Positions 3,167 through 63,900 of a DNA stretch of 64,000 nucleotides are shown piece after piece. Source of the stretch: an uncultured bacterium (GTDB lineage Bacteria; Patescibacteriota; Microgenomatia; UBA1400; CG1-02-47-37); the NCBI GenBank assembly GCA_963980215.1, contig CAXBYZ010000001.1, positions 7,370 to 71,369 on the forward strand. The letters run 5' to 3'. The notes beneath the pieces were generated by a model. That model worked only from the letters and a program-made list of their open reading frames with translations, was not told where the DNA came from and did no database searches. Position 1 is the first letter of the stretch; every line of letters starts with the position of its first letter. A program made the translations under genes and the position numbers.

Positions 3167-4554
3167 TTGATAGATTTAAGGTGAAGTTCCTTTAATTGCT
3201 CTGGGGTTGGGATAGAAGGAGCATTTAGAACTGCAGTTTGGCCAGAAGAAATAGTTGGAAATGCCATGACTTCCCTTAGGTTTGGCTCACCGTATAGGAC
3301 CATTAAGAGTCTGTCTATTCCTGGAGCAATACCTCCGTGTGGAGGAACACCGTACTGGAAAGCGGTGAGCATGTGAGTAAATTCTTGTTTTTGTTCTTTG
3401 GTAAAACCAATTAGTTCAAAGATTTTTTCTTGAACTTTTGAATCGTGAATTCTAATAGATCCCCCGCCAACCTCAAAACCATTTAAAACTAAGTCATGCT
3501 GAAGGCCCCTAACTTTTAGAGGATCTTTGTCTAGCAGGTGAACGTCGTCTGGGTGAGGTGAAGTAAACATGTGATGACTGGGGGCAAATTGAGCATTACC
3601 TGAACCATGGAAGTAGTCTTCCTTTGATTGTTTGTTGAATAGAGGAAAGTCGAGTGTCCAAGCAAAAGCTAGTTCGTTTGGATCTTTTTTGTCCTTTCTT
3701 AAGTCAGGTTTATCTGAGCCGTATTTTTTTTGAGCCTCTGAGTGAGAAATTCTTGGCCAAGGTGTTTGTTGGATCTTTTTTTCTGGAAATATCTCTTTGA
3801 CTAAAGAGGTAAACATTTTTTCGGTGAGTTGGAGAATGTCTTCTTGAGTGACAAATGACATCTCGATATCTAGCTGAGTGAATTCTCCGTAGGCTCGATC
3901 GGCACGAGGGTCTTCGTCTCTAAAACATTTAGCAAATTGAAAGTAGCGCTCGAAACCGGCAACCATTAGAAGTTGTTTGTATTGTTGAGGGCTTTGAGGT
4001 AAAGCATAAAACTTACCTGCTTGAAGCCGAGATGGAACGAGAAAATCTCTGGCACCTTCTGGTGTGGTTTTGGTAAGAATAGGGGTTTCTATTTCGACAA
4101 AATCATGATTGGTTAAGTAGTCTCTGATGAACTTTACTGTCTTAGATCTGGTCTTGATGTTTCTATTCATGCGGGGTCTTCGAAGATCTAGGTAGCGATA
4201 CTTCATACGCATCTCTTCATTGATGTCGTGACCGTCTCCAGTAACGGGAATTGGTAGTTCTTTTGATTGGGTGATGATGTCTATTTTTTTGGCTTGGATT
4301 TCTACCTGACCGGTTTCTAGTTTGTCATTGGCTAATTTTCCGGGTCTTTTAACTACCTTGCCGGTAACGGCGATGACATATTCTGGTTTTAAAACAACAT
4401 CTAGGTTTTCGGCGATGACCTGAACTAGACCACTTCTATCTCGAAGGTCAAAGAAAACTAGCTTGCCATGACCCCTGACTGAGTTAACCCAACCTTTGAG
4501 TAAGATAGACTTACCGACATTTTCTGGAGTGGAAATGACTAAGGTTCTTTTCAT
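3163..4554 (-). CDS. aspS: aspartate--tRNA ligase (short archaeal/non-discriminating-type length)
   Basis: Class II aaRS motifs (FRDEDPRADR, QSPQQYKQLLMVAGFERYFQ, GGGSIRIHD). True ATG at complement 4552-4554 (MKRTLVIS); the track's longer ORF begins upstream at a non-conserved extension. Confidence 0.85.
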   Translation of the reverse strand: MKRTLVISTPENVGKSILLKGWVNSVRGHGKLVFFDLRDRSGLVQVIAENLDVVLKPEYVIAVTGKVVKRPGKLANDKLETGQVEIQAKKIDIITQSKELPIPVTGDGHDINEEMRMKYRYLDLRRPRMNRNIKTRSKTVKFIRDYLTNHDFVEIETPILTKTTPEGARDFLVPSRLQAGKFYALPQSPQQYKQLLMVAGFERYFQFAKCFRDEDPRADRAYGEFTQLDIEMSFVTQEDILQLTEKMFTSLVKEIFPEKKIQQTPWPRISHSEAQKKYGSDKPDLRKDKKDPNELAFAWTLDFPLFNKQSKEDYFHGSGNAQFAPSHHMFTSPHPDDVHLLDKDPLKVRGLQHDLVLNGFEVGGGSIRIHDSKVQEKIFELIGFTKEQKQEFTHMLTAFQYGVPPHGGIAPGIDRLLMVLYGEPNLREVMAFPTISSGQTAVLNAPSIPTPEQLKELHLKSIK

Positions 4555-4773: not shown

Positions 4774-5283
4774 ATGGTTGAATCGCAATCACGAGCAGTG
4801 TTGGTTAACCGGCAAAGAGCAACGTTAGTATCTGTGTTTGATCTAGTTGCTGATGTTGCTGGGAGTGTTGATGATCATTTAAAAGCAAGAAGTGATCCAA
4901 GAAAAAAACTTTTTATTAGAAAATGTTTTTCGGATCCATATTCCTGTAGATCTTCACTTATACAAACAAATGAATGTGGTAGGCATGGTGAGAAAAAAGT
5001 GGTGTGCCACCCAGATATAGGACCTAGAGAAATTCCAGAAATAATCGTTGAAAAACAAAGTAATGTGGTAGTATACCAAGCGACTGGGTGTCAAAATCCT
5101 CCCATTGAATGTATATATAACAAAAAAACTCCGAATTTAGGTTCAACTTGTAATCATCCAAGAATTAGAACCCCCCAGTCAGGAACACATATTATTCGAT
5201 GCACTGATCATAACGATAAAAAGCAATATTTTTCATTACAAAAGGATGGCTTAGGAGCAACAATCGATGCAATTAATAAGTAA
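4774..5283 (+). CDS. hypothetical cysteine-rich small protein (169 aa, about 8 Cys, no signal peptide)
   Basis: ORF with strong SD (AAGGAGG, 7 nt before ATG) and upstream promoter. No family recognised. Confidence 0.45.
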   Translation: MVESQSRAVLVNRQRATLVSVFDLVADVAGSVDDHLKARSDPRKKLFIRKCFSDPYSCRSSLIQTNECGRHGEKKVVCHPDIGPREIPEIIVEKQSNVVVYQATGCQNPPIECIYNKKTPNLGSTCNHPRIRTPQSGTHIIRCTDHNDKKQYFSLQKDGLGATIDAINK

Positions 5284-5341
5284 AAAATGAGTTAGAGTTG
5301 AGTTATAATTAGTTGGTATCAGCTAAGTGTTTATAGACTTT

Positions 5342-5494
5342 ATTTTTAGCTGTAAGGTTTTGTTGCCGTTCCACTCGTTTTTATCGATAGTGTAGATAAT
5401 ATCTATTTTTTGACCTGATTTTAACTTGGTGGCTTTGGCGCCGAGATTAAAAGCGATGGCGGGCAGGTTGTCCTGCAGGGAGAGTCCTTGCAGG
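5342..5494. repeat. 153-bp perfect direct repeat, copy A (orphan copy of the recJ 3' coding end)
   Basis: Identical over 153 nt to 6056-6208 by direct comparison. About 12 nt further left shows degraded similarity (9/12). Confidence 0.9.
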
Positions 5495-5737
5495 TTAGTG
5501 ATAGGCGGATTGGCGGTGGGCGATGGAAAAAATGGTGATGGTTGAGCTTTTAATTGAGTAAATTATTCGGTAAGGCCAAGCTCTGACTGAGTATAAATCT
5601 TTTAATTCACCTCTTAAAATTTTGCCGGCTTTAGGGTCGTTGGTTAGGGCTTCTAGTTTTCTGACTATTTTTTTCTTTTCAACTAAAGGAAGTTTTTTGA
5701 GTTGTTTAATTACTTGAGGTTTATAAACAATCTTCAT
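5495..5737 (-). CDS. type II toxin, RelE/ParE superfamily
   Basis: 80 aa: KIVYKPQVIKQLKKLP...DPKAGKILRGELKDLYSVRAWPYRIIYSI...IFSIAHRQSAYH. Overlaps the upstream antitoxin by 4 nt (ATGA). Confidence 0.8.
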   Translation of the reverse strand: MKIVYKPQVIKQLKKLPLVEKKKIVRKLEALTNDPKAGKILRGELKDLYSVRAWPYRIIYSIKSSTITIFSIAHRQSAYH

Positions 5738-6006
5738 GGAGTTAAACCAATGGCTTTGAGCATGTCTGAGTGAGAGATAGTATTTGTTTCTTTTTTACTT
5801 TGACGTATAGCGGATAACTCTTTTTTGTTTTGTAAGATATCGAGAGTTTCTTGCCAAGACTCAAGCTCTTTTTTACTAATTAACACTACTGGTTCCGAAC
5901 CCCTCAATTTAATAACAAAACTTTTCAAGCCAAGACTGGCTGACTTGATGATTGAGTAAAGATTTTCCCTAGTTTCGCTTGCTGTAAGAGTTGCTGAATA
6001 ATTCAT
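5734..6006 (-). CDS. type II antitoxin, Phd/YefM family
   Basis: 90 aa: ...RENLYSIIKSASLGLKSFVIKLRGSEPVVLISKKELESWQETLDIL... Upstream of and translationally coupled to the RelE-like gene. Confidence 0.75.
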   Translation of the reverse strand: MNYSATLTASETRENLYSIIKSASLGLKSFVIKLRGSEPVVLISKKELESWQETLDILQNKKELSAIRQSKKETNTISHSDMLKAIGLTP

Positions 6007-6014
6007 ATTAACAT

Positions 6015-6043
6015 ATCGTACTATTACTCGTACTAGTTGTCAA
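6015..6043 (-). promoter_or_regulatory. promoter of the phd-relE cassette (TTGACA-17nt-TACGAT on the minus strand) with CGTACT direct repeats
   Basis: Minus-strand reading: TTGACAactagtacgagtaatagTACGAT. Repeated CGTACTA motifs form a likely operator. Confidence 0.4.
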
Positions 6044-7710
6044 GTAATAGATTTGATTTTTAGCTGTAAGGTTTTGTTGCCGTTCCACTCGTTTTTATCG
6101 ATAGTGTAGATAATATCTATTTTTTGACCTGATTTTAACTTGGTGGCTTTGGCGCCGAGATTAAAAGCGATGGCGGGCAGGTTGTCCTGCAGGGAGAGTC
6201 CTTGCAGGGTGAGTTTTAAGTGTTTTTGGTCTTGGCCAACGGTACGAAAATCTACAAGCTCAACCTTTTTACTAATAAAGAGGGGTGGTTTGTTGCCAAA
6301 ACCGCTTGGTTCTAGTTTTTCTAGTTCTTCAAATAATTCCCAGTTAATATCTGAAAGGTTTAGCTGACAGTCTATGTTTATGGTTGGGGTAAGTTGGTCT
6401 TTGGTAAGTTCTTTTTCTGCTAAATCTTCTAGCCTCTTTTGAACTTCTGGTAAGTTAACGTTTTTAACAGTAAAGCCGGCGGCCATTTGGTGACCACCGT
6501 GTTCTAAGATTATGTCTTCCATGCTTCTAATAGCTTTTAAAACATTAAAACCTTTGATGGATCTAGCTGAGGCTTTTGAAAATGTTTCTCCCATGGAGAC
6601 GACAAAGGCTGGTTTGTAGTATTTTTCTACTAAACGGCTGGCAACTAGACCAACAATACCTTCATGGTAAGACTGGTGTTGAACAAAATTTAGTTTCTTC
6701 TTTGATTGGTTGTGCTCGATTATTTGATTGTTGGCATGAAAGTACATCTTCATGGTTTTGTCTTGTCTTTCTAGGTTGGTTTGGTTTAGGTTGTTGGCTA
6801 GTTTGTTGGCTTTTTCTAGACTGGTGGTGCAGAGAAGTCTTAGAGAATCTAGAGCGTGTTCGAGTCTGGCCATGGCGTTTAACCTGGGACCAATCATATA
6901 GCCAATTTGGTAAGTGGCGATGGTTGGTAACTCTATCTTTGAAACTGAAGCGAGGGCATTTAAACCAATTCTTTTGGATTGTTTTAGTGACTCTAGGCCA
7001 AATTTAACTAAGGAGCGATTGGCTTTGGTAAGAGGAACCATGTCTGCGATAGTACCAATGGCAACTAGTTCTAGTGAAGTTTCTAGGTCTTTTAACTCTC
7101 TTGCTAAAAACCAAGAAACACCAACACCAGCTAACTTTGTGGTGTGAACAACACTAACTACTTTTGGGTAGTAGGGTTTTTTGTTTTTTACTTTTGGTTG
7201 GTGGTGGTCGGTGATGATGACATCGATACCCTTTTTGGCGGCATACTCAGAGCCTTTGAAAGCTGAGATGCCGTTATCTACAGTGATGATTAACTGACAG
7301 GGTCCATCCTTGTCAGAGAGAATTTGGTCGATGCCATCTGGAGATAGACCACGGATAGTGTCGCCTCTTCCGGGAATGTAGGGCATGACCTTGGCTTTTA
7401 AAGCGTGAAGAGATTCCCATAAGACTGCTGTAGAAGTGATGCCGTCGGCATCGTAGTCTCCGTAGATATAGATTAGCTCTTTATTCTTGATGGCTTTTTT
7501 GATACGAGTGACGGCTTTTTTTAGTTGAACTTTGTTAATACCCACATCCTCTGGTTTAATTTTTTCTGGATCGATAGGGTTTAGAAAATCTTTTTGGTCT
7601 GCTTTGGTTTTTATGCCTCGATTAATTAAGATAGCAGAGATAATTTTATCTCGTCTTTTTTTGAGATCAGTATCTTTTATTTTTGATTTGATTTTTATTA
7701 TCTTATCCAT
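6040..7710 (-). CDS. recJ: single-stranded-DNA-specific exonuclease RecJ
   Basis: DHH motifs (IYIYGDYDADGITSTAVL; VIITDHHQP) and DHHA1-like region. Start taken as ATG for MDKIIKIK (7710); the track ORF extends to 7836 with alternative starts 7725/7836. Confidence 0.85.
   Translation of the reverse strand: MDKIIKIKSKIKDTDLKKRRDKIISAILINRGIKTKADQKDFLNPIDPEKIKPEDVGINKVQLKKAVTRIKKAIKNKELIYIYGDYDADGITSTAVLWESLHALKAKVMPYIPGRGDTIRGLSPDGIDQILSDKDGPCQLIITVDNGISAFKGSEYAAKKGIDVIITDHHQPKVKNKKPYYPKVVSVVHTTKLAGVGVSWFLARELKDLETSLELVAIGTIADMVPLTKANRSLVKFGLESLKQSKRIGLNALASVSKIELPTIATYQIGYMIGPRLNAMARLEHALDSLRLLCTTSLEKANKLANNLNQTNLERQDKTMKMYFHANNQIIEHNQSKKKLNFVQHQSYHEGIVGLVASRLVEKYYKPAFVVSMGETFSKASARSIKGFNVLKAIRSMEDIILEHGGHQMAAGFTVKNVNLPEVQKRLEDLAEKELTKDQLTPTINIDCQLNLSDINWELFEELEKLEPSGFGNKPPLFISKKVELVDFRTVGQDQKHLKLTLQGLSLQDNLPAIAFNLGAKATKLKSGQKIDIIYTIDKNEWNGNKTLQLKIKSIT
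6056..6208. repeat. 153-bp perfect direct repeat, copy B (functional 3' end of recJ)
   Basis: Identical to 5342-5494. Encodes the last ~51 codons of RecJ (minus the final 4 codons). Confidence 0.9.
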
Positions 7711-7730
7711 AACGGTTATAATCATAACAT

Positions 7731-9074
7731 ATGGAAGTTTTGCTACCGAAACTAGTCGTAAAAGTGATGGGGGTGCTGGAAAAGGCCGGATTTGAAGTAT
7801 ATGTGGTAGGAGGAGCGGTGAGAGATTTGCTTTCAAAAAAGAAAGTTTATGATTGGGATTTTACTACTAATGCAAAGCCTGAAGAAATTACTAAACTTTT
7901 TGAAGATAGTTTTTATGATAATGCTTTTGGAACAGTTGGAGTAGCTGAAAAACATTTGGGTGGTGATGGTGATGGTGTTTTTGAGATAACTACTTTTAGA
8001 AGTGAGGGAAAGTATAGTGATAAACGCCGACCAGATAAAGTGGTTTGGGGGAAGAGTTTGGATGAAGATTTAAAGAGAAGAGATTTTACTATTAATGCGA
8101 TGGCGATTGATAAGAATCTAAAGATTATTGATCCATTTGATGGCCAGAAAGACTTGAAAGCTAAGATTGTAAAGGCGGTGGGTGCAGCTGATGTACGATT
8201 TAATGAGGATGCATTAAGAATGATGAGAGCTATTCGAATTGCTGCTCAACTAGGATTTATTATTGAAGAAAAAACCTTGAAAGCTATTAGCAAGAACTCA
8301 AAACTGATTAATAAAATTGCACTTGAGAGAGTGAGAGATGAGTTTTTAAAGATTATTGCTTCTGACTACCCAAAAGATGGGGTTTTGATGTTGTTTAGTA
8401 GTGGTTTACTTGAACTTATTATTCCTGAGTTGATTGAGATGCGTGGAGTTGATCAAGCTGGGCACCACACAAAAGATGTGTGGAACCATAGTTTGGATGC
8501 ACTTGAAGCCTGTCCATCTAGTAATGTGATTGTGCGGCTTGCTACCCTACTTCATGATGTAGGTAAGCCAAAAGCCAATATGGATCGAGGGGTGGGTAAA
8601 GAGATTACTTTTTATAACCATGAGGTGATTGGAGCCAGAATGGTGAAGAAGATTGCCAGAAGACTTAAGATGAGCAAAAAACAGATTGATTTACTCTGGC
8701 TACTGGTACGCTGGCATATGTTTGCATATGATAGCCACATGACAGATAAATCAATTCGAAGATTTATTAAAAGAGTGGGGGTAGAGAATATTTCTAAAAT
8801 GATGGATTTGAGGGTTGGTGATCGAGTCGGGGGTGGAACTAAGGCAACTAGCTGGAGACTGGAAGAGTTGAAAAAAAGAATTGTGGAAGTTCAAAAAACG
8901 CCAATGCAAGTGAAAGACTTGAAAGTATCTGGCCATGATGTGATGGAGATTTTAGAGATTAAGGGTGGGAAAAAAGTGGGTGAGGTTTTAAATATCTTAT
9001 TTGAGGAAGTGATGGAAGATAGCGAGAAAAATGAGAGGGAGTACTTGTTAAAGAGGGTTAAGGAAGTTAAATAA
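7731..9074 (+). CDS. cca: CCA-adding tRNA nucleotidyltransferase (class II NTase head + HD domain)
   Basis: GGAVRDLL head motif; HD domain (HHTKDVWNHSLD...LLHDVGKP). Alternative start at 7767 (MGVLEKAGFEVYVVGG). Confidence 0.85.
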   Translation: MEVLLPKLVVKVMGVLEKAGFEVYVVGGAVRDLLSKKKVYDWDFTTNAKPEEITKLFEDSFYDNAFGTVGVAEKHLGGDGDGVFEITTFRSEGKYSDKRRPDKVVWGKSLDEDLKRRDFTINAMAIDKNLKIIDPFDGQKDLKAKIVKAVGAADVRFNEDALRMMRAIRIAAQLGFIIEEKTLKAISKNSKLINKIALERVRDEFLKIIASDYPKDGVLMLFSSGLLELIIPELIEMRGVDQAGHHTKDVWNHSLDALEACPSSNVIVRLATLLHDVGKPKANMDRGVGKEITFYNHEVIGARMVKKIARRLKMSKKQIDLLWLLVRWHMFAYDSHMTDKSIRRFIKRVGVENISKMMDLRVGDRVGGGTKATSWRLEELKKRIVEVQKTPMQVKDLKVSGHDVMEILEIKGGKKVGEVLNILFEEVMEDSEKNEREYLLKRVKEVK

Positions 9075-9110: not shown

Positions 9111-9785
9111 TTATTCTTCGAAGTCGAGCATGACTTTTTTGATGTTTTGAAGATTTCTTTGATGGTCGGCGTGATCGTAAACAAAATTTCGATATGAATT
9201 TTTTTGCTTAAAGTAACTTAGAACAATATCTTTTTGACAGTAGTTGGTATTGGTTAGATGTAGGTATTCAGGTAAAGATGAGTATTGATACTTATCTAAC
9301 TGATTAATATTTTCCGCCAAACCGGCACTGTAGGGATTTAAGTGGATGTAGCGAGAGAGATGTAGTAATTGTGACTCTGTCTCAACTAAAACAGATTTAA
9401 ATTTACCTTGAAAAATGGGGCCAATTCTTTTATTTTTTGTATTAAAATATCGAGTATAACTATTGGCAAATTTACTCATAAAATTAGAGATGCCGTTGTC
9501 AACTGATTGCTCTAACAGTAAGTGAAAATGGTTCGGCATAAAACAATAACTAATTATTTTTACTAAATGCTGTTTAGGTTTGTTGGGCTTTTTATCTTTA
9601 TCGAGGAATTGTTGACGAGAAAAATAGGAAAATCTAATTTTTGGAGATTCTTCTTGATAATAAAGCAGGGTATCTAGGCAGCGCCAATAGTGTCTTTCGT
9701 CTAAGAAAATTGGCATTGAAGCAACTCCGCGGTTAAAGATGTGATAAATGCTGTCTGTAATTAGAGGAGTTTTTCTCCCAGGCAT
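9111..9785 (-). mobile_element. REP-associated tyrosine transposase (RAYT; IS200/IS605-like HuH Y1 transposase), copy 1
   Basis: 224 aa with HuH motif (MPNHFHLLL) and catalytic-Tyr region (SRYIHLNPY). No tnpB partner; family-A REP hairpins sit 3 nt from its stop and 33 nt from its start. Confidence 0.8.
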
Positions 9786-34315: not shown

Positions 34316-34318
34316 TTA

Positions 34319-40885: not shown

Positions 40886-41563
40886 ATGAAGAAACTAAAG
40901 AAAAAGTTGTTGATATCAAAGTGGTTGGGATTAGGATTGCTGATCCCCTCTTTATTGCTGAATGCCTACTTTGTTAGTCGGCCAAAAAGTGATTATGGAA
41001 TTGAAGTGATGGAGGTGTTGGATGGAGATACTTTGCTATTGGAAGGGAAAACTCGATTGAGGTTACGGCAAGTGGATATGCCGGAACTTGATAATTGTTA
41101 TGGACAGGAAGCTAAACAATTATTGGAAGAGATGGTAAAGGGAAAGAAAATTACTATTCAAGATAAAATCTTGGATCAGCGAGGTCGAGCCATGGCTTTG
41201 GTCTATTTGGGAGATAGATTAGTCAACTTGGAGTTATTAAAGAATGGTATGGGACGGTATCATTCGGACAAAACTCGAGCGACTGAGGAGTTGAAAGCGG
41301 CCGGAGCCAAAGCGAAGGCAGAAAATTTGGGAGTGTACTCGCCGGAGTGTTACCAACAAGAAAAAAATTTGGAAAAACCGGAGTGTATTATTAAGGGAAA
41401 TATCGATTTAAATAATCAAAGTATTAAGAGATATTACTACCCGGGTTGTGCCCAGTATAAATTCGTGATTGTGGAGAAAGATAAAGGTGAAGATTGGTTT
41501 TGTAGTGAAGCGGAGGCTGAGGTGGCAGGGTATGTGAAGGCTAAATCCTGCCCGGAGGGATGA
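40886..41563 (+). CDS. secreted staphylococcal-nuclease (SNase/thermonuclease) family nuclease with C-terminal Cys-containing domain
   Basis: Signal/TM N-terminus; SNase motifs [36 protein letters not shown]-terminal KGNI...YYYPGCAQY...[13 protein letters not shown] module. Confidence 0.75.
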
Positions 41564-41625: not shown

Positions 41626-42270
41626 ATGAATATGAAAAAGCGAATGTTTTTTGCGTCAAGCATAGATAGAGTGGCAAGTCATATAGTTGGGAAAATTGAA
41701 GGAGGAGTGGATGGACTAAAGTCGGTGTTTATTAATACAGCTGCGGAAGCGGAGGAAGGTGATAAAAGTTGGATGGAAATTGATAGAACTGGATTAAATG
41801 AAGCTGGAATTAAAACTTTTGATTATACTATTACCGGTAAAACTAAAAGTGATTTGGAACGAGATTTAGGTGATTGTGAGTGGATCCATGTAAATGGCGG
41901 AAATGCTTTTTATTTACTACTCCAAATGCGAAAGTCGGGGTTTGACCAATTTATTAAGAGGCAGATTAATAAAGGGGTTATTTATTCCGGTTCAAGTGCT
42001 GGCTCGATAGTGGCGGCACCGGATATTGAAATTACTAAATGTATTGAGAGTAAAGACTTTGAAAAAGAGCTTGGAAGTTTTGAAGGATTAGGATTAGTAG
42101 ATTTTATTACTCTACCTCATTGGGGTGGTGATGATTTTAGAGAATTATATTTAAATCAAAAAATTAAGTCTGCTTATAGAAAAGGGAATAAAATCATTTT
42201 GTTGAATGATGATCAGTATGTGGAAGTGGTGGATGGAAATTATAAAATTGTGGATGTAACGAAAGATTAA
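41626..42270 (+). CDS. peptidase S51 (dipeptidase E-like)
   Basis: GGNAFYLL and GSSAGSIV (Ser nucleophile) motifs. Confidence 0.7.
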   Translation: MNMKKRMFFASSIDRVASHIVGKIEGGVDGLKSVFINTAAEAEEGDKSWMEIDRTGLNEAGIKTFDYTITGKTKSDLERDLGDCEWIHVNGGNAFYLLLQMRKSGFDQFIKRQINKGVIYSGSSAGSIVAAPDIEITKCIESKDFEKELGSFEGLGLVDFITLPHWGGDDFRELYLNQKIKSAYRKGNKIILLNDDQYVEVVDGNYKIVDVTKD

Positions 42271-42273
42271 AAG

Positions 42274-42298
42274 ACCTTCAAGGACTGTCCTTGAAGGT
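42274..42298. repeat. REP-like element, family B, perfect 12-bp-arm palindrome (ACCTTCAAGGAC-T-GTCCTTGAAGGT)
   Basis: Perfect inverted repeat by inspection. Confidence 0.6.
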
Positions 42299-42392: not shown

Positions 42393-42791
42393 TTAACGTT
42401 TGGGGGATTGGCGCTTACGCCTGGCGGAGCCACCCATGCCGGCTTTGCGTCGTTCTCTTTTTCGTGGGTCTCTAGTAACTAGACCTTTTTTCTTTAGAAT
42501 TGGTTTGAATTTCTCTTCATTGACTTTGATTAAGGTTCGTGCAATTCCGTGAATAGTGGCATCTAGTTGACTGGATTTGCCTGAACCTAAAACTTTGACG
42601 GTAACGTAGTATTTTTCTAGAACGTTGCAGATTTTGAATGGCTCTAGGAATAAACCTTGGTTGACTGAACCAGGAAAGTACTTACTAACTGGCAGATCAT
42701 TGACTTCGTGGTCACCTTTTCCAGTGAATAGTCTAACTCGAGCGATGGCTCTTTTTCTTCTTCCGGTTGCGTAAACGTATTTTTTTGACAT
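42393..42791 (-). CDS. rpsI: 30S ribosomal protein S9
   Basis: YATGRRKRAIARVRL...GGSARRKRQSPKR. Confidence 0.93.
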   Translation of the reverse strand: MSKKYVYATGRRKRAIARVRLFTGKGDHEVNDLPVSKYFPGSVNQGLFLEPFKICNVLEKYYVTVKVLGSGKSSQLDATIHGIARTLIKVNEEKFKPILKKKGLVTRDPRKRERRKAGMGGSARRKRQSPKR

Positions 42792-58702: not shown

Positions 58703-59881
58703 TTACTTAATAATCTTGGTAATAACACCAGCTCCTACGGTAAGTCCACCTTCGCGGATAGCGAAACGAAGACCTTCTTCTAGGGCAACTGGTTGAATTA
58801 GCTTGGCAGACATATTCGCTTTGTCTCCAGGCATTACCATCTCGACTCCTTTTGGCAAGGTAACATCTCCAGTGACATCAGTAGTTCTGATGTAGAACTG
58901 AGGTTTGTACCCGGTAAAGAATGGTGTGTGGCGTCCACCTTCTTCTTTGGAAAGAATGTAGATTTCGGCTTCAAATTCTGTAAAGGCTTTTACAGAACCT
59001 GGTTTAGCAAGAACTTGACCTCTTTCGACGTCATCTTTTTCGACTCCTCGAAGCAAGATACCAACGTTATCACCGGCTTGACCGTCTTCGAGTTGTTTTC
59101 TGAACATCTCGACTCCAGTAACAGTGGTTTTTCTGGTGTCTTTTAGACCGATGACTTCGATTTCCTCACCGACGGTGATTTTACCGCGGTCGATTCTACC
59201 AGTAACAACTGTGCCTCTCCCTTTAATAGAAAAGACGTCTTCGACAGCCATTAGGAACGGTTTGTCTAGAGGTCTTTCTGGGGCGGGAATGTATTCATCT
59301 AGGGCTTTCATGAGCTCTTCGATGGATTTACCAGCTTCGGCGTCTCCCTCTAAAGCTTTTAGAGCACTGCCTCTAATTATTGGGACGTCTTTACCTGGAA
59401 AGTCGTACTTGGTTAGTAGTTCTCTAACTTCCTCTTCAACTAAGTCAATCATTTCTTTGTCATCGACCATGTCGACTTTGTTAAGAAAGACTACTAAAGC
59501 TGGAACGTTAACCTGCTTGGCCAAGAGTAGATGCTCTCTGGTTTGAGGCATTGGGCCATCGGTTGCGGCAACAACTAAAATAGCACCGTCCATTTGAGCG
59601 GCACCAGTAATCATGTTCTTGATGTAGTCTTTGTGTCCTGGACAGTCGATGTGGGCGTAGTGGCGTTTGTCTGTTTCGTACTCTAAGTGAGAGATAGAAA
59701 TAGTAATACCACGCTCTTTTTCTTCTGGAGATTTATCAATCTCGTCAAATTTTAGAGCTTGGGCTTGGTTTTTACTTGCCAAGTATTGAGTAATTGCGGC
59801 AGACAAAGTTGTCTTGCCGTGATCGACATGACCAATGGTCCCGACGTTTAGATGGGGCTTGGTTCTGTTGAATGTTGCCAT
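58703..59881 (-). CDS. tuf: elongation factor Tu
   Basis: [19 protein letters not shown] motifs. Confidence 0.97.
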
Positions 59882-59943: not shown

Positions 59944-62100
59944 TCAACCCCCTTTTTCAGAGGTGGATGGATTTTGCTTTTTTATGATAGTTTCGGTGAT
60001 GTTTTGTGGAACTTCTTCGTAGTGAGATGGCTCCATGTAGAAGCTGGCTCGACCTTGAGTCATGGACCTTAAAATGGTAACGTATTGGGTCAACTCTGCT
60101 AGGGGTACAAGGGCGGTAATGATGGTGACTTTGCCTCGGCTAGTTGTGCCTTGAACTTGAGCTCTTTTGGCTGATAAGTCACCGATAATTTCTCCCATAA
60201 ATTCTTCTGGGGTAGAAACTTCGACCTTCATGATAGGCTCTAGTAAAATTGGATCGGCTTTTTTAACGGCAGTTTGTAGAGCCATGGAACCGGCAATTTT
60301 GAAGGCAATTTCTGAAGAGTCGACATCGTGATAAGAGCCGTCGTAGACGATGGCTTTGACGTCGACCATTGGGTAACCGGCAATACAGCCATTTTCTAAA
60401 GCTTCTTTGACACCCTTGCCGACGGCTGGAATAAATTCTTTGGGAATACGACCACCAACAACTTCTGAGACGAACTCGAAACCTTCGCCAGAATCTCTTG
60501 GCTCTATCCTTAATAAACAGTGACCGTATTGACCGCGACCGCCTGACTGTTTGATGTATTTGCCTTCGGCTTCGGCTTTCTTTTTAATGGTTTCTTTGTA
60601 AGCAACTTGAGGTTGACCAGTATTGGCTTCTACATTAAATTCTCTTTTCATACGATCGACTAAGATTTCTAGATGAAGTTCGCCCATTCCGGAAATGATG
60701 GTTTGGCCGGTTTCGGGATTACTCTTGATAGTAAAGGTTGGATCTTCTTCTGAAAGTCTGTTTAGGGCGTAACCCATTTTTTCTTGGTCGGCTTTGGTTT
60801 TTGGCTCGATAGCAAGAGAGATAACTGGGTCGGTAAAGGTAATTCCTTCTAGGACAATGGGGTGGTCTGGATCACAAAGAGTGTCTCCGGTAGTGGTTTT
60901 CTTGAGCCCAACTATAGCGACGATCTCACCTGCAAAGGCTTCTGTAATTTCCTCTCTGGTGTTGGCGTGCATTAAGAGAAGTCTGCCAGCACGCTCTTTT
61001 TCTCCTTTAGTGGAGTTGGCAATGTAACTGCCTGATTGAAGAGTGCCAGAGTAAACACGGACATAGGTAAGACGACCAACGTGTGGGTCGGTTTGAACTT
61101 TGAAAGCTAGGGCTGAGAAAGGGGCTTCTTTTTGGTTGGGTCTAATTTCTTCGGCTTCTGTCTTTGGATGAGTACCCTTAATGTCTTTGACATCGACTGG
61201 ACTTGGAAGGTAGTCGACAACTCCGTCAAGAAGTGGCTGAACACCTTTGTTTCTTAAAGATGAGCCAGCGTAAGTGGGAACTAGTTTGTAGGCAAGAGTG
61301 GCTTTTCTTAAGGCAGTTTTAAGCTCGTCTAGAGTGGGCTCTTCTCCTTCTAGAAATTTTTCTAGGAGTTTGTCGTCGTGTTCACTAATTTGCTCAATAA
61401 GGAGTTTTCGGTATTTTTCGACATCTTCTTTCATGTCTTCGGGGATACCTACGGCTTCGTACTCGGCTCCAGTTTCGTCTGATTTCCAGACCAAAGCCTT
61501 TTCATCTAGAAGAAGGACTATTCCTTTGAAAGCATTTTCAGCTCCGATTGGGAGAGTCATGATAGCTGGGTTGGCTCCTAGGCGGTCTTTGATGTCTTGA
61601 ACGGTGGCTAAAAAGTCGGCTCCTAGTTTGTCCATTTTATTGATGAAACATAGACGAGGAACGTTGTATTTATCGGCTTGATGCCAGACAGTTTCTGATT
61701 GAGATTGAACTCCTTCTTCGGCGTCTAGTACAGTAATCCCCCCATCTAAAACTCGGAGGGATCTTTCTACTTCGGCGGTGAAGTCAACGTGTCCAGGAGT
61801 GTCGATAATGTTAACACGGTGTTCAACTTGATCAACAGCTCCCTTCATTGTTGGGGTCCAGAAAGCAGTGGTGGCGGCTGACATGATAGTGATGCCTCGC
61901 TCTTTTTCCTGCTCCATCCAGTCCATCTGGGTATCGCCATCGTCAATATTGCCTATCTTGTAAGACTTGCCGGTGTAGAACAAAATACGCTCGGTAGTGG
62001 TAGTCTTACCGGCGTCGATGTGGGCAATAATGCCAATGTTCCTGATTTTATCAAGAGGCATCTTTCGCTTATTGGTGGTGTCTGTTTGTTTGTCTGCCAT
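59944..62100 (-). CDS. fusA: elongation factor G
   Basis: [24 protein letters not shown] motifs; domains II-V. Confidence 0.97.
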
Positions 62101-62106
62101 AAGGCA

Positions 62107-62134
62107 ATAAAAAAATCGCTCACAATAGGCGATT
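62107..62134 (-). promoter_or_regulatory. hairpin AATCGC-N9-GCGATT followed by U7 on the minus strand, in the fusA leader (attenuator/terminator-like)
   Basis: Stem 62114-62119/62129-62134; A-run 62107-62113 on the plus strand, which is a T/U-run on the minus strand, directly before the fusA ATG. Confidence 0.4.
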
Positions 62135-62171
62135 GCTTTGTGAAAATAGCTTTTTATAAATTAGTAGAGGT

Positions 62172-62200
62172 ATTATAGACAAGAAATGTGATTTTGTCTA
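62172..62200 (-). promoter_or_regulatory. near-consensus promoter for fusA-tuf (TAGACA-17nt-TATAAT on the minus strand)
   Basis: Complement of TGTCTA (62195-62200) and ATTATA (62172-62177). Confidence 0.45.
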
Positions 62201-62224
62201 GAGAAAGAGTGTGTGGATTGTATA

Positions 62225-62248
62225 CCTACAGGGATCATCCTTGAAGGT
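62225..62248. repeat. REP-like element, family B (CCTACAGGGATCATCCTTGAAGGT)
   Basis: CTAC + hairpin CAGGGAT-C-ATCCTTG (one G.T) + AAGGT. Sits 15 nt upstream of the RAYT-2 start. Confidence 0.65.
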
Positions 62249-62412
62249 ATATAATGATTATAGATGCCTCCCAAGAATGCTGTAAAAAAATATAAACCAA
62301 GGTCTATTTATCATGTTTATAATAGAGGTGCTGGAAAACAAAATATTTTTAAAGATGAAGAGGATTACAAAACATTATTAGGTTATTTTAAATTTTATTT
62401 AACTCCCATAGA

Positions 62413-62436
62413 CCTACAGGGATCATCCTTGAAGGT
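62413..62436. repeat. REP-like element, family B, in frame inside the RAYT-2 CDS
   Basis: CCTACAGGGATCATCCTTGAAGGT translated as (D)LQGSSLKV, in frame +2 relative to the repeat. Confidence 0.65.
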
Positions 62437-62716
62437 GGCTCCATCTAGGGTATTAAAGAATCATGCTCTAAAAATTGAGTTGATTGCCTACTGCTTAATG
62501 TCAAATCACTTCCATTTAATTCTCTATCAGGAGGAGATTGATTCAATAAATAGTTTTTTGAGGTCAGTTGCAACTAAGTATGCAATGTATTTTAACCGTA
62601 AATACAAGAGAACTGGTCATTTATTTGAAGGTATATATAAGGCTGTTTTAATGAAAACTGAAGAACAGTTATTACACTTATCTAAATATATTCATAGGAA
62701 TCCTCTAGAGATTTTA

Positions 62717-62740
62717 CCTACAGGGATGATCCTTGAAGGT
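62717..62740. repeat. REP-like element, family B, in frame inside the RAYT-2 CDS
   Basis: CCTACAGGGATGATCCTTGAAGGT translated as PTGMILEG, in frame 0. This differs from the frame of the 62413 copy. Confidence 0.65.
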
Positions 62741-62914
62741 TATAAATATTCGAGTTACGGGAATTATTTAAAACAATTTACGCAAACCTGGGTGAAATCT
62801 GAAAAGGTTATGAGTGTGTTTAACAGAGTTGATCATGAATATTCATCATATAAAGAATTTGTTGAAAAAAATGAAGAAATTATAAAATTTAAAGAAGTTT
62901 TATTGGATTATTAG

Positions 62915-62938
62915 CCTACAAGGATGATCCTTGAAGGT
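62915..62938. repeat. REP-like element, family B
   Basis: CCTACAAGGATGATCCTTGAAGGT. Sits exactly between the RAYT-2 stop (62912-62914) and the rpsG stop (62939-62941). Confidence 0.65.
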
Positions 62939-63418
62939 TTACCACCTAAAGTGGGAGAAGGCTTTGTTGCTCTCGGCAACTTTGTGGGCTTGAGTTTTTC
63001 TATCGATAGCTCCACCTTGATTCTTGAGGGCGTCTGTTAGTTCAGCGGCTAGTTTTTGGTAGAAGTGATGGTACTCTGAGTTTGATCTTTTTCTGGCAGC
63101 ATCGATAATCCAGCGAATAGCTAGGGACTCTCTTCTATCTCCCCTAACAGGCATAGGGACCTGATAAGCGGCTCCGCCGACTCTTCTGGATCTAACTTCC
63201 ATGGTGGGTTTGACGTTATCTATAGCTTGATTTAAAGCAACTATTGGATCTTCTTTGGTTTGGGTTTTTACAATCTCTAGAGCTTTGTAAACATGTTTTT
63301 GGGCGATAGATTTTTTACCACTTAACATGATTTTGTTGATTATTTTAGCTACTAGCCTATTTTCGTAGACTGAATCTGGCTTGGTAACTCTTTTGGTAAC
63401 TTTTCCTGTTCTTGGCAT
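62939..63418 (-). CDS. rpsG: 30S ribosomal protein S7
   Basis: Full-length similarity. Confidence 0.93.
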   Translation of the reverse strand: MPRTGKVTKRVTKPDSVYENRLVAKIINKIMLSGKKSIAQKHVYKALEIVKTQTKEDPIVALNQAIDNVKPTMEVRSRRVGGAAYQVPMPVRGDRRESLAIRWIIDAARKRSNSEYHHFYQKLAAELTDALKNQGGAIDRKTQAHKVAESNKAFSHFRW

Positions 63419-63423
63419 AGATA

Positions 63424-63900
63424 TTATTCTGCTGGTTTGTCGTCTGCAGGTGCGTCACTTGCACTTGAAGATGATCCGGTTGATGATTTGACTCCACCTG
63501 ATTTGGTGCCGTACTTTGATCTTGAAGATTTTCTATTTGCAACTCCTGAAGAGTCGTATTTGCCTCTAATGATGTGGTACTTAACACCGGGTAAGTCTTT
63601 GACTCTCCCCCCTCTAACTAAAACAATAGAGTGTTCGGCTAAGTCGTGACCTTCTCCTGGAATGTAGGCAGTAACTTCTTGTTTATTGCTTAGTCTAACC
63701 CTAGCAACTTTACGAAGAGCTGAGTTTGGCTTTTTTGGAGTCATGGTTTTTACAACTGTACAAACACCTCTTTTTTGAGGATTGGTGGTTGGGGTAACTC
63801 TCCTGGTGTTTAAGTTGAGAGATTTTCTTAATGCAGTGGCCTTGATCTTTTTTGGCTTAGATCTTCTTTTGTTTCTGACGAGTTGATTTATTGTTGGCAT
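63424..63900 (-). CDS. rpsL: 30S ribosomal protein S12 with ~30-aa Ser/Gly-rich acidic C-terminal extension
   Basis: [18 protein letters not shown]...; [13 protein letters not shown]; tail ...[23 protein letters not shown]. Confidence 0.93.

Follow-up and report, generated by a model that had tools for sequence, protein, structure and literature searches.

We analysed 64,000 nucleotides of contig CAXBYZ010000001.1, from an uncultured bacterium of the Patescibacteriota (the whole 64-kb stretch is hereafter the window; G+C 38.8%), and in particular a gene for a 216-residue protein, RAYT-2 (RAYT, REP-associated tyrosine transposase; REP, repetitive extragenic palindrome), which lies antisense between rpsG and fusA. 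One 24-nt hairpin, called family B, occurs there four times, once on each side of the gene and twice inside its coding sequence. The locus is probably a REPtron-like unit, in which a single-copy, vertically inherited class-2 Y1/HUH gene is accompanied by four cognate REP hairpins, the internal two being ancestral. As judged from homologous genes, the two internal copies are conserved in a large clade of Patescibacteria RAYTs, and the constraint at these copies acts on the DNA and not on the peptides. A first-pass annotation of the window had recognised the gene and its four repeats and had taken the internal two for secondary in-frame insertions rather than ancestral coding sequence; the description is borne out by what follows, the interpretation only in part.

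The unit is composed of the following elements, H1 to H4 being the hairpin copies (coordinates are those of the window):

about 62215 to 62938, plus strand: whole inserted unit, made of about 10 nt (GGATTGTATA), H1, a promoter region, RAYT-2 and H4, as defined by empty-site comparison
62225 to 62248, plus strand: H1, the upstream REP hairpin copy (CCTACAGGGATCATCCTTGAAGGT), which ends 15 nt before the RAYT-2 ATG
62250 to 62255, plus strand: TATAAT, a -10-like box; the RAYT-2 ATG follows 8 nt downstream
62264 to 62914, plus strand: RAYT-2 coding sequence, 216 amino acids (aa), class-2 TnpA_Y1 (HUH/Y1), antisense between rpsG and fusA
62413 to 62436, plus strand: H2, REP copy within the gene at site 1, which starts at codon position 3 and encodes (D)LQGSSLKV (residues 50-58)
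62507 to 62515, plus strand: HuH motif H82-F83-H84 (within NHFH), in invariant alignment columns
62687 to 62704, plus strand: catalytic tyrosine motif Y142-I-H-R-N-P147, of the Y-x-x-x-N-P form that marks class 2, located by alignment
62717 to 62740, plus strand: H3, REP copy within the gene at site 2, which is in frame 0 and encodes PTGMILEG (residues 152-159)
62915 to 62938, plus strand: H4, the downstream REP copy (CCTACAAGGATGATCCTTGAAGGT), which fills exactly the 24 nt from the RAYT stop to the rpsG stop

Comparison with an empty site in a relative (L095), and with L001 and L005, placed the right boundary of the unit flush with the rpsG stop codon and the left one, approximately (about +/-3 nt), some 10 nt outside H1. 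A search with the 24-nt near-palindrome CCTACAGGGATSATCCTTGAAGGT gave four matches, all on the plus strand and with 0-1 mismatch (62225, 62413, 62717 and 62915); with up to 3 mismatches allowed, the rest of the window had no match, nor had any of 100 shuffles. The hairpin consensus, (A)CCTACARGGAT-S-ATCCYTG[A/T]AGG(T), corresponds to a 10-11 bp stem on single-stranded DNA (ssDNA), and on both strands the tetranucleotide is on the 3' side. Each of the four copies folds into an ssDNA hairpin of about 10 bp with one A.A mismatch (-4.7 to -6.8 kcal/mol). The first-pass annotation had thus placed the repeats correctly, 15 nt before the start, directly after the stop and twice within the gene in different frames, and the flanking H1 and H4 support its view of a REPtron-like unit with a cognate palindrome. 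Its repeat set, however, had to be corrected: the four exact copies stand, and a looser, stem-level search (CCTNCARGG-N5-CCYTGNAGG) adds five related hairpins with other loops in the window (5472, 6186, 40813, 41582 and 42275), a pattern absent from 200 simulated sequences.

To what extent the internal copies are shared was judged from homologues. A search with RAYT-2 at E <= 1e-5 yielded 2872 proteins, of which the 120 best are nearly all 212-237 aa long; the named sources among those 120 are Patescibacteria or Candidatus Beckwithbacteria entries called 'transposase' or 'RayT'. We aligned 26 sequences, including 24 homologues of 54-78% identity and the second RAYT of the window. Both 8-aa segments are ungapped and conserved in these homologues, with the consensus DLQGxSLKVAPS at site 1 and LPTGxxLEGYKYSSY at site 2, and L51, Q52, G53, L56, P152, L157 and G159 are invariant or almost so. 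The check that had been suggested for an insertion, whether the two segments appear as indels in such an alignment, therefore gave no indels, and the internal 24-mers align to conserved residues, an outcome that the first-pass annotation itself had named as refuting its reading. The closest relatives, L001 (78% identity) and L005 (76%), carry the same four hairpins at -39, +149, +453 and directly 3' of the stop codon. In distant homologues, down to about 33% identity, both positions are filled by unrelated hairpins that are proper to each lineage. The copies that we describe individually are these:

L009: loop ...AGACT..., at the four positions
L124: loop ...AGAGT..., at the four positions
L092: CCTTCAGGGAGACTCCCTGAAGG, loop AGACT, at the four positions
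L080: CTATGGAGGTTGAACCTCGA, at -45, +175, +470 and +716
L084: own palindrome, at both internal sites
L024: own palindrome, at both internal sites
L027: own palindrome, at both internal sites
L039: own palindrome, at both internal sites

The loop common to the four copies is itself proper to the lineage (ATSAT in the window, AGACT in L009, AGAGT in L124, AGACT in L092 and ACWGT in L126), and a cognate palindrome on both flanks was also found in L001, L005, L009, L092, L124 and L119. Some other homologues have site 1 only or site 2 only. A script count found at least one internal copy in 25 of 59 hairpin-flanked family genes, to which L092 and L124, carrying both, have to be added. The orientation of the central loop often flips between copies without a consistent rule: a pairing of H1/H2 against H3/H4, which fits the window, L001, L039 and L080, was rejected as it fails in L005, L009, L024, L027 and L084. 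These flips look like neutral hairpin-loop inversions, on the sequences compared. Among truncated homologues, P0008 was considered as a possible deletion between hairpins and discarded, as it merely starts at M79.

The nature of the constraint was examined at the nucleotide level. Synonymous sites have reached saturation (dS 1.2-2.0) in the comparison of the window, L001 and L005, but 13 of 15 codons in the hairpins are identical against 51 of 129 elsewhere (Fisher p = 6e-4). In a covariation test, we asked whether the peptides at sites 1 and 2 of a gene can share one 23-nt sequence read in two frames. This was possible with zero mismatches for 31 of 67 distinct peptide pairs, where 2000 permutations gave 4.1 on average and never more than 11; the mean mismatch was 1.18 compared with 2.32 for permuted pairs, a value reached by no permutation. 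The coupling can be seen in single changes: LQGQSLQV at site 1 occurs with PAGTVLAG at site 2, and the substitutions K to Q and E to A are the same A to C change in DNA. H2 and H3 are read in different frames, and site 2 of L119 is read in the third one (YKDDPCR), in a gene (3645-4325, minus strand) whose product is 50% identical to RAYT-2 and which has nearly the same family-B hairpin. Finally, the foot of the site 1 copy is never GTAGG, which would give a TAG stop in that frame, and GAAGG or GCAGG is found instead, whereas GTAGG is frequent in non-coding and site 2 copies. The internal copies thus seem to match the REP consensus as closely as the reading frame permits. Because of the two-frame covariation, the frozen synonymous sites and the third frame in L119, their conservation is attributed to the DNA and not to the protein. 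This part of the first-pass reading, the DNA origin of the internal segments, can be retained; insertion in this lineage cannot.

Two population variants of the source gene, each on its own contig, differ beside H2. L136 (589 nt) equals the window until 10 nt 5' of H2 (about 62403) and continues into unrelated sequence; the offset of 10 nt is also the distance between the left boundary of the unit and H1, and the contig, at 1.4x coverage, is possibly chimeric. L137 carries a GCT duplication 3 nt 3' of H2 (about 62440).

RAYT-2 is a RAYT-type Y1/HUH protein. Pfam Y1_Tnp (PF01797) matches it with E 7.6e-8 (33 bits, cutoff 23), and H82 and H84 of the HuH motif, Y142, H144, N146 and P147 are invariant in the 26-sequence alignment, in keeping with the identification of the reading frame as a RAYT in the first-pass annotation. 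The motif set NHFH, LF[EQ]G, YIHRNP and YKYSSY belongs to the consensus. Quentin et al. (2018, PMC6006769) use Y-x-x-x-NP to define class 2 (RAYT-like) TnpAY1, while IS200 transposases have Y-x-x-x-Q. Within class 2, the RAYT-2 motifs resemble those of TnpAY1 subclass 2.1, a placement by motif alone. No helix-turn-helix-like C-terminal domain was detected with Pfam. An AlphaFold model built on the alignment (predicted template modelling score, pTM, 0.80; core predicted local distance difference test, pLDDT, >85) gave as top match in the Protein Data Bank (PDB) 4ER8 chain A (E 2.1e-6, target-normalised TM 0.68), a complex of the E. coli RAYT with a REP hairpin (PMC3479197); the ISDra2 and IS608 TnpA structures rank after it. 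When the PDB was searched with a sequence profile, no match reached E <= 0.01, so that the link to 4ER8 comes from fold comparison alone. In the model, site 1 falls in the loop that joins helix 1 to strand 2, ahead of the HuH motif, and site 2 in the linker that follows the tyrosine helix. The pLDDT is <50 at residues 54-62, which overlap site 1, and at 149-159, which cover site 2, with flanks >85, and both sites coincide with length-variable loops across the wider family.

Upstream of the gene, H1 ends 1 nt from the TATAAT box, which is kept in L001 and L005 and is TATACT in L124. A scan of the plus strand upstream of RAYT-2 found no -35 match and no full promoter; the box might nevertheless serve as the RAYT-2 promoter, with a short or leaderless mRNA. 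On the minus strand, the 5' end of RAYT-2 (62257-62286) contains a promoter-like TTTACA-18-TATAAT (11/12) directed through H1 to fusA.

Signs of long-term maintenance were seen in the gene and its surroundings. The dN/dS of RAYT-2 is 0.07-0.11 (with dS >1), against 0.07-0.14 for rpsG. Synteny of close relatives, taken from exact-protein look-ups, places RAYT-2 between rpsG and fusA in them too (L001-L008). In the source organism the gene is at this site in 4 of 4 places shown, the 19 others of 23 contigs being listed as similar. The comparison with relatives that had been proposed as a check thus shows that the gene, found there at 76-78% identity, is not specific to this genome, and all four repeats are present there. 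Other family members have other addresses: the homologue P0025 has the same neighbours (glmS-RAYT-cofD) in all 10 places shown of 24 contigs, and P0051 is located between lepA and hrcA. A profile scan of genome contigs with the family alignment gave, among the matches listed, mostly relatives of 30-47% identity and not the nearest ones. A general rule that these genes form antisense islands between co-directional genes was rejected, as the neighbours of 79 family members are '--' in 30, '++' in 22 and mixed in 27. By its low copy number (one copy in the window), vertical inheritance and purifying selection, RAYT-2 behaves as a domesticated RAYT.

The hairpin, for its part, appears to behave as a REP. 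Outside the unit, the lineage-own hairpin occurs in 0-3 copies per 20 kb. A scan of Joint Genome Institute (JGI) metagenomes for the exact family-B pattern found 24 loci, of which one is the source locus (L118), two are other RAYT loci and about 21 are solo copies; one sample accounts for at least 12 of the contigs. The solo copies are mostly intergenic and adjoin stop codons; a few are inside open reading frames (ORFs). L098 has in its rpsG-fusA spacer a solo hairpin whose sequence equals that of H4 of its own RAYT, a gene located elsewhere on the same contig. Solo family-B hairpins in L103, L110, L111, L121 and L122 often adjoin hairpins of other families (such as AAGGTAGGACCTTGAAGG, CCTGCAAGGACTGTCCTTGCAGG and TGACAGGGACAGTCCCTGTCA), in clusters like bacterial interspersed mosaic elements (BIMEs).

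The history of the insertion site was followed in relatives, assigned to host clades by identity matrices of four host proteins: clade I comprises the window, L092, L095 and L098, and clade II L001 and L005. The str genes of the window, the fusA signals and the states of the rpsG-fusA spacer are:

63424 to 63900, minus strand: rpsL, a str gene
62939 to 63418, minus strand: rpsG (ribosomal protein S7, 159 aa)
62200 to 62172, minus strand: fusA promoter TAGACA-17-TATAAT, scoring 11/12, outside the inserted unit
62134 to 62107, minus strand: hairpin of the fusA leader (AATCGC...GCGATT) with a U7 tract after it; 6 nt (AUUGCC) separate the tract from the fusA ATG
59944 to 62100, minus strand: fusA (elongation factor G, 718 aa)
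58703 to 59881, minus strand: tuf, a str gene
Window, L001 and L005: spacer with RAYT-2 and four hairpins
L095: empty spacer of 112 nt, TAG / ACTCTCTTTTC / CTCTAGACA...
L098: spacer with one solo hairpin
L092: spacer with another RAYT, which is 57% identical and has its own hairpin, with a 309-aa ORF and, beside the fusA promoter, with a solo hairpin of family B

The presence of the unit in both clades favours an old insertion with later loss or replacement, as read from these spacers; repeated gain at an rpsG-fusA hot spot is the less favoured alternative. The fusA promoter and the hairpin-U7 leader are both present as the first-pass annotation had claimed; it had described rpsG and fusA as nearly always neighbours in one transcript and had regarded the two signals as apparent acquisitions of fusA. 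Instead, CTCTAGACAAA and TATAATA of the promoter are invariant in six relatives, the empty site included, and the leader (about 60 nt) is kept in all six, again with L095. Since they are also found in the empty-site relative, promoter and leader are older than the insertion, and the insertion therefore splits no co-transcribed pair in this clade. The str genes had already formed two transcription units before it took place, and the spacer behind rpsG is an ordinary landing place for REPs. From its position (promoter, hairpin-U7, ATG), the leader looks like a terminator or attenuator; an alternative pairing in it possibly co-varies (CACAA/UUGUG in the window, GUUC/GAAC in L001, UUCUC/GAGAA in L005). 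An Rfam search of 61900-63100 gave a chance miRNA match alone, the leader and the hairpins fitting no known RNA family. In L092 the 309-aa ORF (4774-5703), between the different RAYT and fusA, has no Pfam match, and the family-B solo hairpin that follows it is 1 nt from the fusA promoter.

How the four copies could be kept alike may be pictured by analogy with Y1/HUH enzymes of established biochemistry, namely the TnpA proteins of IS608 and ISDra2 and the TnpAREP of E. coli, which cuts and rejoins REP ssDNA (PMC3333891, PMC3479197). RAYT-2 would recognise the hairpin on single-stranded DNA, cut beside it and rejoin the strands; such cleavage and rejoining, by spread or replacement of REPs, together with selection for recognition, would keep internal, flanking and dispersed copies alike, and the internal ones could persist as their flexible surface loops would tolerate any peptide. 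Several observations sit uneasily with a REPtron of this kind. Binding, cleavage and homogenisation by RAYT-2 are what we infer from these enzymes. The score of RAYT-2 against the NCBIfam RAYT equivalog NF047646 is 34.5 bits, below the cutoff of 80. The hairpin foot is without the canonical 5' GT[AG]G guide tetranucleotide, CTAC and GTAG sitting within the stem in reverse order (5'-C CTAC ... GTAG G-3' or ... GAAG G-3'), and each of the four copies stands alone in the same orientation, without the inverted pairing of REP doublets forming hairpins (REPINs) or of BIMEs. No dispersed copy of the exact 24-mer was found in the remaining 63 kb of the window. The low pLDDT of the two loops may partly stem from the shallow 26-sequence alignment. 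Lastly, the RAYT-2 proteins of the window, L001 and L005 are about equally distant from one another (76-78% identity, a star-like pattern), whereas L001 and L005 are the closer pair in their host proteins; strict vertical descent of RAYT-2 is therefore not proven.

These points notwithstanding, other explanations account less well for the data. That the internal 24-mers are secondary REP insertions, landed in frame in the established RAYT gene of this lineage, now seems quite unlikely. It would have precedents, as in-frame REPs have been documented in tnpAREP genes of TnpAY1 subclass 2.4 (Bertels group 4) and some 2.8 members (Quentin et al. 2018, PMC6006769) and are known in other genes, including the recJ-like gene of the window. 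The two copies do use different frames, and family-wide both positions are length-variable loops, which makes an insertion in a distant ancestor plausible. Yet the alignment with 24 homologues of 54-78% identity shows no indel and (near-)invariant segment residues, the same positions are filled in homologues down to about 33% identity, and orthologues in two host clades with saturated dS carry the internal copies, which refutes a recent event. At the other extreme, conservation at the protein level alone, the likeness to the flanking repeats being a coincidence, is scarcely credible: both peptide segments are conserved in the close clade, but the same 23-24 nt recur in non-coding flanks and intergenic solo copies, differing peptides co-vary as a shared DNA in two frames predicts, site 2 of L119 is in a third frame and the peptides lie in low-confidence loops.

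An active insertion sequence of the IS200/IS605 type, with H1 and H4 as left- and right-end subterminal hairpins and single-strand 'peel and paste' transposition, would explain the same-orientation hairpins at both ends, the 10 nt or so outside the left one and the flush right end, the many genomic contexts of family members, the empty and solo-hairpin states of the rpsG-fusA spacer in relatives and the fold similarity to ISDra2 and IS608 TnpA. We consider it improbable, given a tyrosine motif of class 2 instead of the Y-x-x-x-Q of IS200 transposases (PMC6006769), a length of 216 aa with a C-terminal tail instead of a core of about 150 aa, a single copy per 64 kb (the other RAYT of the window is 35% identical and has its own hairpin), a context that is fixed across many samples and a synteny kept across lineages with dS >1 and dN/dS of about 0.1. 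Somewhat more room is left, tentatively, for internal hairpins with a function of their own, as protected master copies seeding the REPs of the genome, as sites at which the enzyme, binding or cutting its own coding DNA during replication, would limit or regulate its gene, or as mRNA hairpins, an idea that overlaps with the REPtron-like unit preferred here. The two fixed positions across a very large clade, the frozen synonymous sites, the covariation with flanking and dispersed copies, the position of H1 next to a -10-like box and two anecdotal source-gene variants right beside H2 (the breakpoint 10 nt 5' and the GCT duplication 3 nt 3') would fit such a role; but 34 of 59 family members were scored as having no internal copy (L092 and L124 among them, although they carry both), freely flipping loop orientations speak against strictly sequence-specific roles, and the breakpoint contig, L136, has the low coverage noted above.

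REPtrons, as defined by RAYT or TnpAREP genes flanked by cognate REPs of the E. coli yafM type (Nunvar 2010, PMC2817692; Ton-Hoang 2012, PMC3333891; PMC3479197), share with the present unit the Y1/HUH core with Y-x-x-x-NP and its best structural match in 4ER8, the single copy with vertical inheritance and purifying selection, and the short palindrome that flanks the gene and is also found solo beside gene 3' ends. The unit differs from them in having no 5' GTAG guide and a score below the NCBIfam cutoff, single flanking hairpins of one orientation in place of inverted REP pairs or BIMEs, an apparently low copy number (0-3 per 20 kb), two copies inside the ORF and a Patescibacteria host.

Subclass 2.4 (Quentin et al. 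2018) also has REPs inside an intact RAYT ORF, in peripheral variable regions, as 'double-foot'-like perfect palindromes. Here, in contrast, there are two fixed sites outside the HuH-Y interval (residues 50-58 before HuH 82-84, and 152-159 after Y142), the motifs are FQ/FE-G and YIHRNP instead of WQ and YIxNNP, and the foot is CTAC...GTAG instead of GTAG...CTAC; neither clade-wide covariation with the flanks nor reading in two or three frames, both seen here, figures in the parts of that paper on which we draw. With subclass 2.1 or TIRYT (Bertels group 1; PMC3733652), RAYT-2 has in common NH[YF]H, FQ, Y[IV]H.NP, the SS tail motif and a length of >200 aa, but that subclass is reported to be without REPs and flanked by terminal inverted repeats (GGGGWSAS) (Di Nocera 2013, PMC3733652), whereas RAYT-2 is flanked by same-orientation hairpin REPs. 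The IS200/IS605 elements IS608 and ISDra2 share the HUH/Y1 fold, same-orientation subterminal hairpins and precise empty sites in relatives; their own features, Y-x-x-x-Q, a protein of about 150 aa and multiple identical active copies, were not seen in the 64 kb. Intragenic REPs and Rickettsia palindromic elements (PMC3733652) show that in-frame palindromes are tolerated in protein genes, often of DNA repair, with the difference that here the carrier gene encodes the presumed enzyme for the palindrome and that the positions are conserved over a large clade.

In-frame REPs in RAYT genes are hence already known from another subclass. New here are the 2.1-like subclass, the host phylum, the two sites outside HuH-Y, the two or three frames and the clade-wide covariation; a literature search for RAYT and Patescibacteria returned unrelated microbiome papers only. 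RAYT function and the spread and uniformity of REPs are open questions on which this clade carries evidence in its own sequence: the site that the enzyme presumably recognises occurs twice within the gene of that enzyme, in different frames, and across many lineages it changes in step with flanking and dispersed copies, so that RAYT-REP co-evolution and REP homogenisation become testable by comparative genomics and a few oligonucleotides. An annotation rule also follows for many Patescibacteria 'transposase' genes, as single-copy RAYTs with up to four hairpins. A bolder proposition, which we rate as doubtful, is that the internal REPs are obligatory working parts (master copies or self-control) and that pairs of same-stem hairpins delimit cassettes mobilised by the RAYT in trans. 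If true, Patescibacteria would have a hairpin-delimited gene-cassette system, with a toxin-antitoxin pair and an SNase-like gene of the window as candidate cassettes.

Further units and hairpins of the window bear on these candidates or stand apart from them:

9111 to 9785, minus strand: RAYT-1, a second REPtron, 224 aa, 35% identical to RAYT-2
5495 to 5737 and 5734 to 6006, both minus strand: toxin-antitoxin pair

A different palindrome, ATCACACCTCTAAGGTGTGAT, flanks RAYT-1 (9088 and 9818) and recurs as solo copies (34730 and 47215); no internal copies were found in this gene, and its upstream copy provides the last six codons and the stop of secF (...HHTSKV*). The toxin-antitoxin pair lies between the two copies of a 162-nt direct repeat, 99% identical (5333-5494 and 6047-6208), each of which terminates in the hairpin CCTGCAGGGAGAGTCCTTGCAGG. 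The repeat corresponds to the 3' end of the recJ-like ORF (6040..7836, minus strand), in which a family-B-stem REP (6186-6208) is in frame about 50 codons from the end and encodes LQGLSLQ; the arrangement suggests that a REP was recently the site of a rearrangement or an insertion. The SNase-like ORF (40886..41563, plus strand, 225 aa) is found between the family-B-stem hairpins CCTACAGGGTCGGACCCTGAAGG (40813) and CCTACAAGGTTGGACCCTGAAGG (41582), which have other loops, and may be a hairpin-delimited cassette. A solo hairpin, CCTTCAAGGACTGTCCTTGAAGG (42275-42297), lies between the convergent ORFs 41626..42270 (plus strand) and 42393..42791 (minus strand).

A palindrome family related to family A (ATCAC[AG]CTCC.GGAGTGTGAT) occurs at 34317, 35291, 39909 and 42843. 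In the syntenic contig L105 the spot matching 39909, at the 3' end of the same gene, holds a family-B REP; thus, the same intergenic spot hosts different REP families in different genomes. In the str cluster itself, RpsL (63424-63900) is 158 aa long with a serine-rich, low-complexity C-terminal tail, and measures 159-173 aa in relatives.

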